Notes under the pieces: model-generated
The model's input: only the letters and a program-made list of their open reading frames with translations
What the model was told of the DNA's origin: nothing
The model's database searches: none
Translations under genes and position numbers: made by a program
IMG/VR virus record: IMGVR_UViG_2802428989_000001
Coordinates: 1-64,000 of that record
DNA length: 64,000 nucleotides
DNA from: a virus
Strand: one strand, 5' to 3'
In this document: positions 21,870 through 25,247 of the stretch, one piece after another
How the letters are laid out: each line of letters begins with the position of its first letter
How positions within the stretch are numbered: the first letter of the stretch is position 1

Positions 21870-22240
21870 GCACCAACGTCCACGTCTACCGAGAATCGCG
21901 CGAGGTTAGGAACAAGCGCATCGCGATCATCGCGATCGACCTACTGACGCGAGTGGTCGCTGGTGACATCGAGGACCCAGCCGCGGCGCTCGCGCGATTC
22001 CATCAGGCACGCGTTGATGAGCACGTGTACTGGACGCAGCCGAGCATGATGCCGTACGACCCTGATCAGTGGTTGACGGCCAATGAGATGGCCGAGATCG
22101 CTGACGTGCTGCCTAGCACGGTTCAGCAATGGAACTACCGCGGTTACATTACAAGTTCCGAGGCGCACGACGGAACCAAGCTGTACAACGTCGGCGAGGT
22201 GAATCGCTACCTCGCACGCAGGCGACCACGCGAAGCCTGA
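21866..22240 (+). CDS. HTH DNA-binding protein (MerR/Xis-like).
   Basis: 'LTANEMAEIADVLPSTVQQWNYRGYI'. Confidence 0.5.
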   Translation: MSTNVHVYRESREVRNKRIAIIAIDLLTRVVAGDIEDPAAALARFHQARVDEHVYWTQPSMMPYDPDQWLTANEMAEIADVLPSTVQQWNYRGYITSSEAHDGTKLYNVGEVNRYLARRRPREA

Positions 22241-22330
22241 TCTATACTGATCAGGCACCTTTCCGCAAAGGTGTCGTTGTTGTGATGGACGAAGGCCCTC
22301 GGACCCCTCCGGGGGCCTTCGTTGCGTTTC
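22236..22330 (+). terminator. Cluster of three hairpins ending in a strong rho-independent terminator.
   Basis: CCTGATC/GATCAGG at 22236-22255. CACCTT/AAGGTG at 22257-22273. A 12-bp GC stem GAAGGCCCTCGG/CCGGGGGCCTTC at 22291-22320, followed by GTTGCGTTTC. Confidence 0.7.
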
Positions 22331-22438
22331 GGGCGCGCCATCAACTACCAGGCAACACAATGTCCACTACACGTCGTATCATGAGCAACTGACAGACCCA
22401 TCCCAAAATCAGGTCCAGGCCTTCCGTCGGAGGCGATT

Positions 22439-23863
22439 TTGAATCCATCAGTGCTGATCAATGGGGTCGAGTTCGTACCGTCCGACACGCCGACGCAATC
22501 GCATATCGGCGTCGCGATCACGACGCGGAACCGCCCCGAAGTCCTCGCCACAACACTTGAGCATGTCCGGCGTTTTACGCCGGGTGCGACGGTGGTTGTC
22601 GTTGACGACGCATCCACGCCGCCAGGGGTAGGCATCACCTACCGATTCCCCGAGCGTGCCGGGGTCGCCGCGGCCAAGAACAAGTGCATAGAGCTGCTGG
22701 TCGACGCTGGCTGTACTGAGCTGTTCCTTCTCGATGATGACTGCTACCCGGTCAAAGAGGGCTGGACCGATCTCTATATCGACAACCCAGAGCCTCACCT
22801 GTGCTATCTGTTCAAGACGCTGGACGCGAATGGCAAGCCGGTGGGCACTCCTGAGATCATCTATGAAGATGGTCGGACGCGCGCATTCAGTCACCCCATG
22901 GGATGCCTGATCTACATGAATCACAGCGTGATTGAGCGCTGCGGCGGCATGCGGACCATCTTTGGGGTGTGGGGCCATGAGCACGTCGAGTACAGCCTTC
23001 GTGTCAACAACACCGGCTTGACCACCAATGCGTTTCAAGATGCCGCAGGCTCGGCTGAGTTCATCTACTCAATGGATGAGCACTGGCACAAGCATCCCGA
23101 GTTCAAGCGCAGTGTGAGCGATCGTGAGCGCCAGACGCAGATTGAGCGCAACGATCATCTGCTGGCCGAGCTGCGCGATACAACGCACGGGTTCGTCCCA
23201 TACCGTCAGCTGGGCAATGAAGTCATCACCACCATGTTGACGAAAGTGGTTGATCCACAGCGTAAGAACGCTTCCAAGTTGGTGTCAGCCGACTTTCAGG
23301 TCTGGCGCAAGTCGATCAGAGGTGCGAAGTCGATCATTCTGGCCGACGAACCCTATGAGCACGACGGAGGCGCCGGGGCGTCTGTGGAGTCGGGTCTGAA
23401 TCCATACCTCCAGCGCTGGATAGTCTGCTATCGCTATCTGCGCGACCACGAGAGCGCGTGGGTATGGATGACCGATGGCACCGACGTTGAGATGTTGCGC
23501 GAGCCCTGGGGCTTGATGCGTGAGGGCGCGCTGTACGTCGGGTATGAGCCGACCGTCCTGGACATCCCCTGGATGCGCCAGAACCATCCGCCGTACCAAC
23601 AGTGGATAGCGGAGAACGGCGGTGCCCAACTGCTCAACGCGGGCGTCGTAGGCGGCGATCACGCGACGCTGCTGGACTTCACAGCGGACATGGTGCGCGA
23701 GATCTTCCGCGTGGGCCCAAGCAAGGTCAAGGGCGACATGGCGGCATTCAATTATGTTGCACGGTCGCCCAAGTGGCGCGAGCGGATCGTTTGGGGCAGT
23801 CAATGGCTCACCACATTCAAGGCTAACGAACGCAACGACTGGAGCGTCTGGAAGCACAAATGA
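22439..23863 (+). CDS. Glycosyltransferase, family-2-like GT-A N-terminal domain plus a C-terminal domain of unknown function.
   Basis: 'IGVAITTRNRPEVL...VVVVDDAS...LLDDDCYP' GT-A/DxD signatures. TTG start with a GGAGG SD upstream. Confidence 0.75.
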   Translation: MNPSVLINGVEFVPSDTPTQSHIGVAITTRNRPEVLATTLEHVRRFTPGATVVVVDDASTPPGVGITYRFPERAGVAAAKNKCIELLVDAGCTELFLLDDDCYPVKEGWTDLYIDNPEPHLCYLFKTLDANGKPVGTPEIIYEDGRTRAFSHPMGCLIYMNHSVIERCGGMRTIFGVWGHEHVEYSLRVNNTGLTTNAFQDAAGSAEFIYSMDEHWHKHPEFKRSVSDRERQTQIERNDHLLAELRDTTHGFVPYRQLGNEVITTMLTKVVDPQRKNASKLVSADFQVWRKSIRGAKSIILADEPYEHDGGAGASVESGLNPYLQRWIVCYRYLRDHESAWVWMTDGTDVEMLREPWGLMREGALYVGYEPTVLDIPWMRQNHPPYQQWIAENGGAQLLNAGVVGGDHATLLDFTADMVREIFRVGPSKVKGDMAAFNYVARSPKWRERIVWGSQWLTTFKANERNDWSVWKHK

Positions 23864-24537
23864 CGACACTCGATGAGATCGCACAGAAGCACGGCACAGA
23901 CAAGTCATCGCTGAATCACAACTACACGGCGATCTATGAGCCACTGCTAGAACCGCTGCGCGACAAGCCGATAACACTGCTGGAGCTAGGCTGGGGTGGT
24001 CACGAGGACCCCGACAGCGGCGGCAACAGCGCGCGCGCCTGGGCCGAGTACTTCACCCATCCTGGCGCCGAGATCATCGTGGTCGAGCTGGAGTCCAAGA
24101 ACGTAAGACCAGAAGACGACGAGCGAATCACCCTCTGGCAGGGCTCGCAGGACGATCAGGCGATGATCGATCAGATCGCAGCGGTGTACGGCCCGTTCGA
24201 TGTGATCATTGATGACGCAAGTCATCTGTCGTCCAAGACGATTCGCTCATTCGAGCTGCTGTTTCGCCATGTGACACCAGGCGGCATCTACGTCGTGGAG
24301 GACACGCACGCGTCCTACCATGAGCACTACTACGGGTCGATGGAAGCCAACGAGGACCCCGAGAAGCGCAGACGTGATGGTGAGTTCACCATGATGCAGT
24401 TCTTTCAGCGGTTGACCGATGAGGTCAACTACCGCGGGCGCACAGAGCTTGACCTGTTTCCCTCGCGATACGCCTGGAACGTGCCCGTTGAGTCCATCGC
24501 GTTCTACTTCAACATGCTGGTTGCGAAGCGGCGATGA
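23860..24537 (+). CDS. Class I SAM-dependent methyltransferase (sugar O-methyltransferase / CmcI-TylF-like).
   Basis: 'HGTDKSSLNHNYTAIYEPLL', 'LLELGWGG', 'VIIDDASH', 'IYVVEDT'. Confidence 0.7.
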   Translation: MTTLDEIAQKHGTDKSSLNHNYTAIYEPLLEPLRDKPITLLELGWGGHEDPDSGGNSARAWAEYFTHPGAEIIVVELESKNVRPEDDERITLWQGSQDDQAMIDQIAAVYGPFDVIIDDASHLSSKTIRSFELLFRHVTPGGIYVVEDTHASYHEHYYGSMEANEDPEKRRRDGEFTMMQFFQRLTDEVNYRGRTELDLFPSRYAWNVPVESIAFYFNMLVAKRR

Positions 24538-25247
24538 ACGTCCAAATTGGGGTTGTCGCGCATCAGGATCGAATACTTCAGGCCGAGGACATGATCGGGG
24601 CTGTTGACGCGAACGTGGTCGCGTATGACGATGGCGATCTCGGTTGCGAGGGTAACCATCGTCGTGTGTGGTCGATGCTGACCGCGTATGACTCTGACTG
24701 GAGTGTCGTACTCGAAGACGACGCGCAGCCTGTCGAGGGCTTTCGCGCACAACTGGAATCAGCTTTGGCGGTTGCGCCTACGCCGATCGTCTCGCTGTAT
24801 CTGGGCAAGGGGAGACCCGAGTTCGCGCAGGCCAGCATCCGCACGATCGCTCGCGCGCTGTCACCGGAGGAGCCGGCCGCCCCGTGCTGGCTCACTGGCC
24901 ATGTACTGCTGCACGCCGTAGGTGTGGCCCTCCGTACACCGCTGGTGCGGAGCATGCTGGAGCATCTGGCACAGCCTCCCGCAGTGTTCATGGCACAGGA
25001 CCACGCGATAGAGCACTGGGCCAACGCAGCAGGGCATCGCATCGGATATACCTGGCCCAGCTTGGTGAATCATGCTGATACACCAACGGTTATCGATGAG
25101 CATCCCGATGGTGTACCCCGTGGGCCACGCATAGTTGACGGGGCCATAGTGGTGACCCCACGTAGGGGGTGGCGGGTTGGTGCACGCGAGCATTGGTCGA
25201 GCGATGAGGTCAAGCTGGCCTTGAGGAGACCGCATGTACATCGCTGA
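24534..25247 (+). CDS. Putative glycosyltransferase (GT-A-like).
   Basis: 'SVVLEDDAQPVEGF' DxD-like. Operon with the GT and methyltransferase genes. Confidence 0.45.
   Translation: MNVQIGVVAHQDRILQAEDMIGAVDANVVAYDDGDLGCEGNHRRVWSMLTAYDSDWSVVLEDDAQPVEGFRAQLESALAVAPTPIVSLYLGKGRPEFAQASIRTIARALSPEEPAAPCWLTGHVLLHAVGVALRTPLVRSMLEHLAQPPAVFMAQDHAIEHWANAAGHRIGYTWPSLVNHADTPTVIDEHPDGVPRGPRIVDGAIVVTPRRGWRVGAREHWSSDEVKLALRRPHVHR

Follow-up and report, generated by a model that had tools for sequence, protein, structure and literature searches.

A putative virion O-glycosylation cassette in front of the late genes of Mycobacterium abscessus MabR prophages

Introduction

As related in papers citing Freeman et al. 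2023, genes 108-110 of the mycobacteriophage Che8 reportedly form a virion glycosylation operon. Virion glycosylation of the Che8/Corndog type is described in three such papers (PMC12363180, PMC11600133, PMC11256854). In the first of them, Che8 gp110 and Corndog gp38 are described as glycosyltransferases essential for capsid glycosylation (PMC12363180); according to the second, cluster O phages encode an O-methyltransferase and, behind it, three glycosyltransferases, with capsid and tail tube as the modified proteins (PMC11600133). Here, we compare these systems with three consecutive genes, gp45, gp46 and gp47, located in a stretch of 64,000 nucleotides of viral DNA (positions 1 to 64,000 of IMG/VR record IMGVR_UViG_2802428989_000001, called the window hereafter). 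The genes probably constitute a cassette for the O-glycosylation of virion proteins, which fronts the late block of packaging and structural genes in a cluster MabR prophage of Mycobacterium abscessus.

Results

A three-gene cassette between early and packaging genes

At 100% identity, the 3-kb region of the window under study corresponds to Mycobacterium phage prophiFSAT01-1 (BK061308.1), which resides as a prophage of cluster MabR in M. abscessus strain 280. Window coordinates equal those of the BK061308.1 record minus 217. Four relatives, McProf, prophiFSIL01-1, prophiFVLQ01-1 and prophiFSQJ01-1, share 77-97% DNA identity with it. GenBank labels gp45 as glycosyltransferase, gp46 as methyltransferase and gp47 as hypothetical protein. 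The three genes are arranged as follows:

22439-23863, + strand: gp45 gene, 474 aa, TTG start codon with GGAGG 5 nt upstream
23860-24537, + strand: gp46 gene, 225 aa
24534-25247, + strand: gp47 gene, 237 aa

Both junctions, gp45/gp46 and gp46/gp47, are 4-bp ATGA overlaps. On the 5' side the cassette adjoins replication and early genes (DnaB, RusA and the helix-turn-helix protein gp44), and on the 3' side follow, in this order, a 99-aa open reading frame (ORF), an HNH endonuclease, terS, terL, the portal and the structural genes. A preliminary description of the window had recognized both the three overlapping same-strand genes and their location between early and packaging genes, and both are borne out. 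The cassette belongs to the rightward lytic block in the middle of the genome, far from the attachment site (att), the integrase and the immunity genes, and its G+C content matches that of the remaining phage genome.

Each of the five MabR prophages retains the three ORFs intact and with their overlaps. Between prophiFSQJ01-1 and the window, the methyltransferase is 80% and gp47 70% identical at the protein level, and these values appear consistent with purifying selection. Such conservation bears on the idea that the cassette is a decaying remnant without function in a defective prophage. In favour of this idea, neither particles nor attP DNA were detectable from McProf. With intact reading frames throughout prophages diverged to 77-97% DNA identity, preserved catalytic motifs and protein identities of the kind expected under purifying selection, we regard decay as very improbable.

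gp47 as a gp110-type glycosyltransferase

The protein gp47 shares 45% identity with Che8 gp110 (E=4e-58) and 37% with Corndog gp38, and it matches the PHROG glucosyltransferase family phrog_854 with 2e-68. Comparison of gp47 to Pfam GT25 (PF01755) yielded 18.2 bits at a cut-off of 24, and 32.3 bits were obtained for Che8 gp110; a GT25 match with E<=0.01 was found in seven out of nine members of the gp47 family. The sequence VVLEDDA is invariant in the family alignment. The earlier view of a 237-aa, GT-A-like protein with an LEDDA motif is confirmed. Searching the PDB with the family profile gave a marginal match only, to mimivirus R655. Based on these similarities, we propose that gp47 is a gp110-type, GT25-like glycosyltransferase and the priming enzyme of the cassette. 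Its re-annotation from hypothetical protein to glycosyltransferase is due in five MabR records.

Terminal serines on capsid and tail tube track the gp110-type enzyme

Two virion proteins encoded downstream of the cassette carry the proposed acceptor sites:

35373-35396, + strand: C-terminal tail GANAASGS of the major capsid protein, proposed O-glycosylation acceptor with terminal Ser
37767-37784, + strand: C-terminal tail ATGSGS of the major tail (tube) protein, proposed acceptor

These ends, previously noted as ...ASGS and ...TGSGS, read ...NAASGS and ...ATGSGS. Of all 63 proteins annotated in this part of the genome, none but the capsid and the tail tube protein terminate in Gly-Ser. Across the five MabR prophages, the final Gly-Ser is the sole invariant part of the tails. 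The capsid tail extends past a conserved FVRIT core that is common to cluster A capsids. A comparison of lineages with and without a gp110-type enzyme gave the following C-termini:

MabR (five prophages), gp110-type enzyme present: capsid AASGS, AAPGS, TGAGS or AAAGS; tail tube TGSGS or TGTGS
Che8, gp110-type enzyme present: capsid ...TGS; tail tube ...DGS
Soul22, gp110-type enzyme present (confirmed locally): capsid ...DES; tail tube ...DES
Corndog, gp110-type enzyme present: capsid ...VGS; protein in the tail-tube position ...GDS
Che9c, gp110-type enzyme present (annotation only): capsid ...TAS; tail tube ...DGS
Saintus, gp110-type enzyme absent: capsid ...EEP; tail tube ...EGP
Isca, gp110-type enzyme absent: capsid ...DDD; tail tube ...GDD
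ReT1v-1, gp110-type enzyme absent: capsid ...TTP; tail tube ...TGP

With MabR counted as one lineage, a terminal Ser is present on 10/10 capsid and tail-tube proteins in the five lineages with the enzyme and on 0/6 in the three without it (Fisher p = 1.2e-4, on a small sample). The three enzyme-free genomes are complete and lack a homologue of gp45, gp46 or gp47, and they share with MabR a homologous capsid (Saintus, Isca) or tail tube (ReT1v-1). Within the group carrying the enzyme, the Soul22 tail tube is 54% identical to that of MabR. Taken together, the homology of gp47, the gene order and the Gly-Ser tails support virion glycosylation as the role of the cassette. A terminal Gly-Ser as a sufficient signature was rejected, being present on the capsids of the coliphages HK97 and HK022 as well.

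gp45 as a two-domain glycosyltransferase

Over its full length, gp45 matches PHROG glycosyltransferase families with 6e-159. The protein divides into two domains:

22439-23206, + strand: N-terminal domain of gp45, residues 1-256, GT2-like GT-A domain with invariant D56-D57 and D99/D101
23207-23863, + strand: C-terminal domain of gp45, residues 257-474, second GT-A domain, closest to retaining GT6/GT8-type enzymes

The N-terminal half scored 22.9 bits against Pfam GT2, just below the cut-off of 23.3, and displays the hallmarks of the GT-A class, i.e., a Rossmann-like fold and a DxD metal/nucleotide-sugar motif. Invariant residues of the C-terminal domain are D346-x-x-D349 (TDGTDV), E370, N400 and G402. 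An AlphaFold2 model built from an alignment of 52 homologues reached a predicted local distance difference test score (pLDDT) of 92.8 and superposes on GT-A enzymes. Modelled alone, the C-terminal half reached a pLDDT of 87.3. Because this half by itself adopts a GT-A fold near retaining-type enzymes, gp45 is a two-domain, probably bifunctional glycosyltransferase, whose C-terminal domain in the model most resembles the retaining GT6/GT8 type. The GT-A/DxD assignment made before for this 474-aa protein holds, and what had been seen as an extra C-terminal domain is a second GT-A domain, probably catalytic as well. A sequence search of the PDB was uninformative for gp45 and likewise for gp47, and NCBIfam returned only far-sub-threshold matches for gp45 and no model for gp46, gp47 and gp48.

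Full-length homologues of gp45, 230 in number, occur in actinobacterial phages and in many Enterobacteriaceae chromosomes. The C-terminal GT-A domain is found as a stand-alone protein of 189-304 aa as well, e.g., in Mycolicibacterium septicum and Serratia proteamaculans. None of these stand-alone proteins has a Pfam family, and the domain looks like an undescribed glycosyltransferase domain family.

Two further matches of the N-terminal domain, to Pfam TAGT with 19.3 bits (cut-off 27.5) and to PHROG 842 (beta-glucosyl-HMC alpha-glucosyltransferase) with E=7e-4, raise the question of DNA as a target. In this scenario the glycosyltransferases would decorate hypermodified bases against restriction, as the T4 alpha- and beta-glucosyltransferases or TET-associated enzymes do, and some authors indeed annotate gp110-type proteins as DNA glucosyltransferases (PMC10955285). 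Both matches are sub-threshold, however, and the shared GT-A fold explains them. The annotation of genes 3-67 contains no hydroxymethylase, no TET/JBP and no other enzyme for base hypermodification, and none has been described for MabR genomes. Moreover, a MycE-type methyltransferase and a second, retaining-type domain fit the building of a glycan better than decoration with a single sugar. We consider DNA modification a very unlikely function of the cassette.

gp46 as a sugar O-methyltransferase

For gp46, a PHROG methyltransferase family was matched with 7e-36. The closest structures are macrolide sugar 2'-O-methyltransferases, namely MycE (PDB 3ssm, E=1.3e-28) and demethylmacrocin O-methyltransferase (PDB 8ia9, E=2.9e-22), which have the same catalytic domain and motifs as gp46. 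Residues D119, H122, E147 and D148 of gp46 align with the DDxxH and ED motifs of MycE, with IIDDASH in gp46 corresponding to VIDDGSH and VVED to VIED in 3ssm. We take DDxxH to be the base/metal motif and ED the metal motif of MycE. By this similarity, gp46 is an S-adenosylmethionine (SAM)-dependent, probably also metal-dependent, sugar O-methyltransferase.

The relationship is confined to the catalytic core. Out of the 419 residues of the MycE chain, gp46 aligns to 184-339 only, and the protein consists of a catalytic core of ~160 residues and a short C-terminal tail. MycE and the 8ia9 enzyme have ~160-180 N-terminal residues ahead of the aligned region; these are absent from the 225 aa of gp46, and with them the N-terminal auxiliary (tetramerisation/substrate-binding) domain of the MycE/TylE family. 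Judged from the alignment, gp46 is a catalytic-core relative of MycE/TylE and not a full family member. Its presumed substrate is a protein-linked glycan, compared to a macrolide for the MycE/TylE enzymes. The preliminary description had predicted a TylF/CmcI-like, SAM-dependent methyltransferase. The methyltransferase class was right, and the family has to be changed to MycE/TylE-like, as gp46 gave no match to Pfam TylF (PF05711). Against Pfam RMNT_CmcI (PF04989), it reached E=0.021 and 15 bits, with a cut-off of 23.2.

Homologues of gp46 were found in 16 phage records, which comprise the five MabR prophages, cluster V phages, Omega, a Microcystis phage and two metagenomic phages. A gp46-type methyltransferase in this slot of the genome is restricted to the five MabR prophages among 50,697 phage records and to four MabR-like IMG/VR contigs, whose identity to the entire cassette and to terL is 70-99%. 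More distant homologues in IMG/VR contigs adjoin genes of GT2, GT11/Stealth and GDP-mannose 4,6-dehydratase type, as assigned by Pfam on the neighbours. These sugar genes next to distant homologues fit a sugar substrate for gp46. A BLAST comparison of 21 distant IMG/VR methyltransferase loci with the known cassette proteins revealed no shared glycosyltransferases. The neighbourhoods suggest that cassettes for glycan methylation, perhaps of 6-deoxyhexoses, are more widespread among viruses.

In the cluster J phage Omega (2172-5543), a GT2 gene (gp16) and a gp46-type methyltransferase gene (gp17, 37% identity) are located right behind the major capsid gene. No gp110-type gene was detected in the 10-kb stretch of Omega examined, and its capsid ends in ...TFA. 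If Omega virions are glycosylated, their acceptor rule differs.

The host envelope as an alternative target

Phage glycosyltransferases modify the host envelope in enterobacteria, and the glycopeptidolipid of mycobacteria is an example of a host glycan that carries O-methylated rhamnose. The enzymes of the cassette might accordingly serve lysogenic conversion, modifying an envelope glycan and thereby blocking superinfection or changing surface antigenicity. The preliminary description had put forward modification of a cell-wall glycan for superinfection exclusion as its alternative. In line with this, the weak Pfam match of gp46 mentioned above is to a rhamnosyl O-methyltransferase/CmcI family, gp45 shows a sub-threshold NCBIfam match to the mycofactocin glycosyltransferase MftF, and McProf lysogens exhibit altered aminoglycoside resistance, for which the authors speculate about cell-wall permeability.

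The properties of the cassette itself point elsewhere. The proteins gp45, gp46 and gp47 have no transmembrane segments (maximum KD19 1.43) and no flippase partner. Their genes are placed upstream of HNH and terminase in the lytic block, distant from att, integrase and immunity, and they are not among the 16 genes reported to be expressed in McProf lysogens by RNA-seq. In addition, the gp47 family is tied to virion glycosylation. Because the proteins are soluble, lie in the lytic block and are not part of the set expressed in McProf lysogens, lysogenic conversion is disfavoured, and we regard it as improbable.

Hairpins upstream of gp45 and the limits of the transcription unit

The intergenic region before gp45 folds better than shuffled sequence (z = -4.2). 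It contains the following elements:

22235-22256, + strand: hairpin 1, perfect 8-bp palindrome (CCTGATC TATACT GATCAGG region), overlapping the gp44 stop codon
22254-22275 (element to 22285), + strand: hairpin 2, 9-bp stem followed by GUUGUUGUGA; terminator-like
22288-22323, + strand: hairpin 3, 16-bp G+C-rich stem; strongest terminator candidate, with a poor U-tract
22369-22421, + strand: conserved non-coding block of 53 nt, invariant columns in the alignment of five MabR prophages
22419-22434, + strand: small hairpin with the ribosome-binding site GGAGG (22429-22433) in its 3' arm, directly before the TTG start

Hairpin 1 (-15 kcal/mol, z = -6.75) is identical in four MabR prophages and gone from prophiFSQJ01-1, the most divergent relative. 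As a piece of a conserved terminator it was rejected on account of this absence; it is doubtful as a terminator and could be a protein-binding site instead. Hairpin 2, called by the terminator scan (-11.7 kcal/mol), differs in its stem sequence in prophiFSQJ01-1 and retains the same GTTGTTGTG tail. For hairpin 3 (-31.2 kcal/mol, z = -4.15), the counterpart in prophiFSQJ01-1 has changed apical pairs and folds with -35.1 kcal/mol. Hairpins 2 and 3 are hence preserved via compensatory changes, and since both are kept with altered stems, two conserved terminator-like hairpins are supported. Their U-tracts, however, are poor. The triple-hairpin terminator proposed earlier is thereby reduced: three hairpins exist, of which the second and third are conserved and the first is doubtful.

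A promoter-like motif had also been proposed in front of gp45. Scanning for the sigma-70 consensus revealed zero promoters on the + strand near the cassette, and the motif comes down to a TANNNT hexamer, TATCAT, at 22377-22382. It lies inside the conserved block 22369-22421, which is possibly a late promoter or regulatory site. No Rfam family was found within 22100-22600. The hairpin with the ribosome-binding site folds no better than shuffled sequence (z = -0.73) and is perhaps incidental.

On the + strand of 22594-28000, no terminator-like site was detected. The cassette is thus insulated from the early genes, as described initially, but not from the packaging genes.

Variation around the cassette and neighbouring genes

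The start of gp45 is annotated 12 nt further downstream in McProf and prophiFSQJ01-1. In prophiFSIL01-1 and prophiFVLQ01-1, a 38-aa ORF is annotated in the conserved leader (16091-16207), overlapping the gp45 start; in the window counterpart (~22326-22442), the ATG at 22360 opens just 10 codons. Downstream of the cassette, the window encodes:

25234-25533, + strand: 99-aa protein without assigned function, directly downstream of the cassette
25535-25843, + strand: HNH endonuclease, followed by a 216-bp gap, with terS from 26060

The interval 25844-26059 between HNH and terS consists of this gap only and presumably contains cos. At the corresponding place, McProf carries three reverse-strand genes (19761-21364), two of which encode membrane proteins, reported to be expressed in lysogeny. 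Further downstream, 29762-33301 of the window encodes a MuF-like minor capsid protein of 1179 aa that includes a fused ADP-ribosyltransferase domain. An ADP-ribosyl glycohydrolase is encoded in the right arm of MabR genomes (PMC9434293), and together with the MuF-like/ADP-ribosyltransferase fusion it might represent a second protein-modification pair in the same phage.

Related gene pairs in enterobacterial phages

The two-domain gp45-type enzyme is encoded by hundreds of enterobacterial prophages. In the HK97-like E. coli phages HK542 (36330-38577, 3979-5136, 6678-7148) and Fostie (17969-20336, 10495-10947), gp45-type and gp47-type genes directly precede HNH, cos and terS. Upstream of the pair, HK542 has its annotated late promoter pR' and Fostie a gene for a Q-like antiterminator. 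The tail tubes of these two phages, which are unrelated proteins, end in ...ASGS (HK542) and ...AAGS (Fostie). The HK97 tail tube is longer by ~80 residues, presumably an Ig-like domain, and ends in ...TIS, and that of HK022 ends in ...VTP. Neither the whole HK022 genome nor the parts of HK97 that were examined contained such glycosyltransferases. All four phages, HK542, Fostie, HK97 and HK022, have a common capsid end, SSGS, and the head-tail adaptor of HK542 and Fostie also terminates in EEGS.

These coliphage termini touch on a further explanation, in which the enzymes build a glycan during the lytic cycle on another target, such as tail fibres, the adaptor or a soluble glycoconjugate, and the Gly-Ser tails are coincidental. 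An SSGS capsid end where the enzyme is lacking (HK022 and the examined HK97 parts), the EEGS end of the adaptor and the absence of gp45 and gp46 from the validated Che8 and Corndog systems would all be compatible with it. Set against this are the invariance of the terminal Gly-Ser in MabR while the preceding residues vary, its confinement to capsid and tail tube among 63 proteins, and the co-occurrence of terminal Ser and gp110-type enzyme in capsid and tail families that are unrelated to one another. Coliphage tail tubes, too, end in Gly-Ser where the enzymes are present (HK542, Fostie) and not in HK97 or HK022. A different lytic-cycle target therefore appears unlikely to us, albeit somewhat less so than envelope conversion.

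It is conceivable, but so far tentative, that a gp110-type enzyme and a Gly-Ser-ended capsid and tail tube make up a portable module for virion glycosylation that extends beyond actinobacteriophages, to which the MabR lineage added a MycE/TylE-type O-methyltransferase, leading to a methylated, possibly glycopeptidolipid-like coat. The terminal-serine rule and the coliphage examples offer a cheap, sequence-based search for virion glycosylation beyond actinobacteriophages.

Discussion

Our analysis favours the interpretation that gp45, gp46 and gp47 glycosylate virion proteins of the MabR phage. Glycosylation of virion proteins with an O-methylated sugar and with the Gly-Ser tails as acceptors, as suggested in the preliminary description, gains support from homology, gene order and the distribution of the tails.

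What the enzymes act on, in which sequence they work, when they are expressed and how immunity is affected, we infer as follows. During lytic growth, the three soluble, cytoplasmic enzymes would be made together with the structural proteins. The two conserved upstream hairpins might end or gate early transcription, with the cassette transcriptionally continuous with HNH and terminase. gp47, the sole component common to every related cassette, would start the glycan on the C-terminal Ser of the flexible ...Gly-Ser tails of capsid and tail tube. The GT2-like and GT6/GT8-like domains of gp45 could then add two further linkages, and gp46 would transfer a methyl group to a hydroxyl of one of the sugars, perhaps a 6-deoxyhexose. 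If Che8 and Corndog are a guide, head and tail would receive a coat of methylated glycans, with altered antibody recognition.

Several observations weigh against this interpretation. McProf gave no plaques and no attP signal, so that virions are perhaps not formed. For the role of gp110, we rely on secondary descriptions. Neither gp45 nor gp46 exhibits sequence similarity to Che8 gp108/gp109 or Corndog gp35-37. The association of the terminal Ser with the enzyme is based on few lineages, in one of which, Che9c, the gp110-type enzyme comes from annotation only, and the capsids of HK97 and HK022 end in SSGS although HK022 is without such glycosyltransferases and none were seen in the examined parts of HK97. 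Lastly, a promoter was not identified by the sigma-70 scan.

Compassionate-use therapy with mycobacteriophages is directed mainly at M. abscessus, and neutralising antibodies limit such treatment. Virion glycans in Che8-type phages are reported to lower antibody recognition. If MabR-type phages indeed carry a distinct methylated glycan, the cassette would be a candidate engineering part for shielding therapeutic phages and a marker that predicts glycosylated M. abscessus prophage-derived phages.

Comparison with known glycosylation systems

Once the permutation of the prophage is considered, the gene order of MabR equals that of Che8, where genes 108-110 are followed by the small ORF gp111, HNH gp112, the genome end (cos) and terS. 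Che8, Corndog and MabR each total three glycosyltransferase domains and one O-methyltransferase, and the MabR locus shares with the Che8/Corndog system a gp110/gp38-type glycosyltransferase (gp47), an operon with additional glycosyltransferases and an O-methyltransferase (gp45 and gp46, in overlapping genes) and a putative C-terminal acceptor, the terminal Ser, on both capsid and tail tube. Among the three phages, only the gp110-type enzyme is homologous. Pairwise BLAST detected no similarity of gp45 to Che8 gp108 and Omega gp16, or of gp46 to Che8 gp109 and the methyltransferase domain of Che8 gp108. An orthologue of the whole Che8 operon was rejected on this basis, as only gp47 is shared; by sequence comparison, gp45 and gp46 are functional analogues, not homologues, of Che8 gp108/gp109. 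Che8 gp108 is a GT2 domain fused to a TylF-type methyltransferase, whereas the MabR methyltransferase is a separate protein of MycE/TylE type and a single MabR polypeptide, gp45, carries two glycosyltransferase domains, unlike Che8.

Corndog, a cluster O phage, resembles MabR in having a stand-alone O-methyltransferase (gp35), encoded in one operon with the glycosyltransferases gp36-38. This enzyme, however, is of TylF type, 54% identical to the C-terminal domain of Che8 gp108 and unrelated to gp46, and Corndog gp36 and gp37 are unrelated to gp45. The Corndog cassette is situated inside the structural block, between terminase and capsid gene (gp33, gp34 and gp39-40 being unnamed). As gp45 and gp46 are unrelated to their partners in Che8 and Corndog, the MabR glycan would differ from theirs.

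The full-length, two-domain gp45 recurs in cluster F1/I mycobacteriophages (Pacc40, Spoonbill, Che9c, Nitzel; 44% identity) and in gp45-type/gp47-type pairs of the enterobacterial phages HK542, Fostie and ENT47670 (38-40% identity for the gp45 homologues). Both groups have gp47 homologues in the same order, beside HNH and cos. Between their gp45-type and gp47-type genes, F1/I phages have either nothing, a small hypothetical ORF or a kinase-annotated gene. To our knowledge, virion glycosylation has not been shown for the gp45-type/gp47-type module.

More remote systems share single aspects. PBCV-1 A64R and mimivirus glycosyltransferases are viral, cytoplasmic, capsid-glycosylating GT-A enzymes whose resemblance is at the level of the fold only (10-13% identity), with a different host domain and acceptor chemistry. 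The Gtr serotype-converting cassettes of Shigella and Salmonella phages are prophage-borne glycosyltransferases, as here, but encode membrane GtrA, GtrB and a type-specific Gtr, lie beside att/int and are expressed in lysogens; the MabR cassette displays none of these properties.

A literature search for glycosylation in MabR phages yielded nothing, and the description of MabR prophages omits the cassette genes. In conclusion, the MabR cassette is most likely a further, slightly re-assorted example of known mycobacteriophage virion glycosylation and not a new kind of system. A different methyltransferase family and a glycosyltransferase with two domains set it apart, and no such case had been pointed out before for the MabR prophages of M. 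abscessus.

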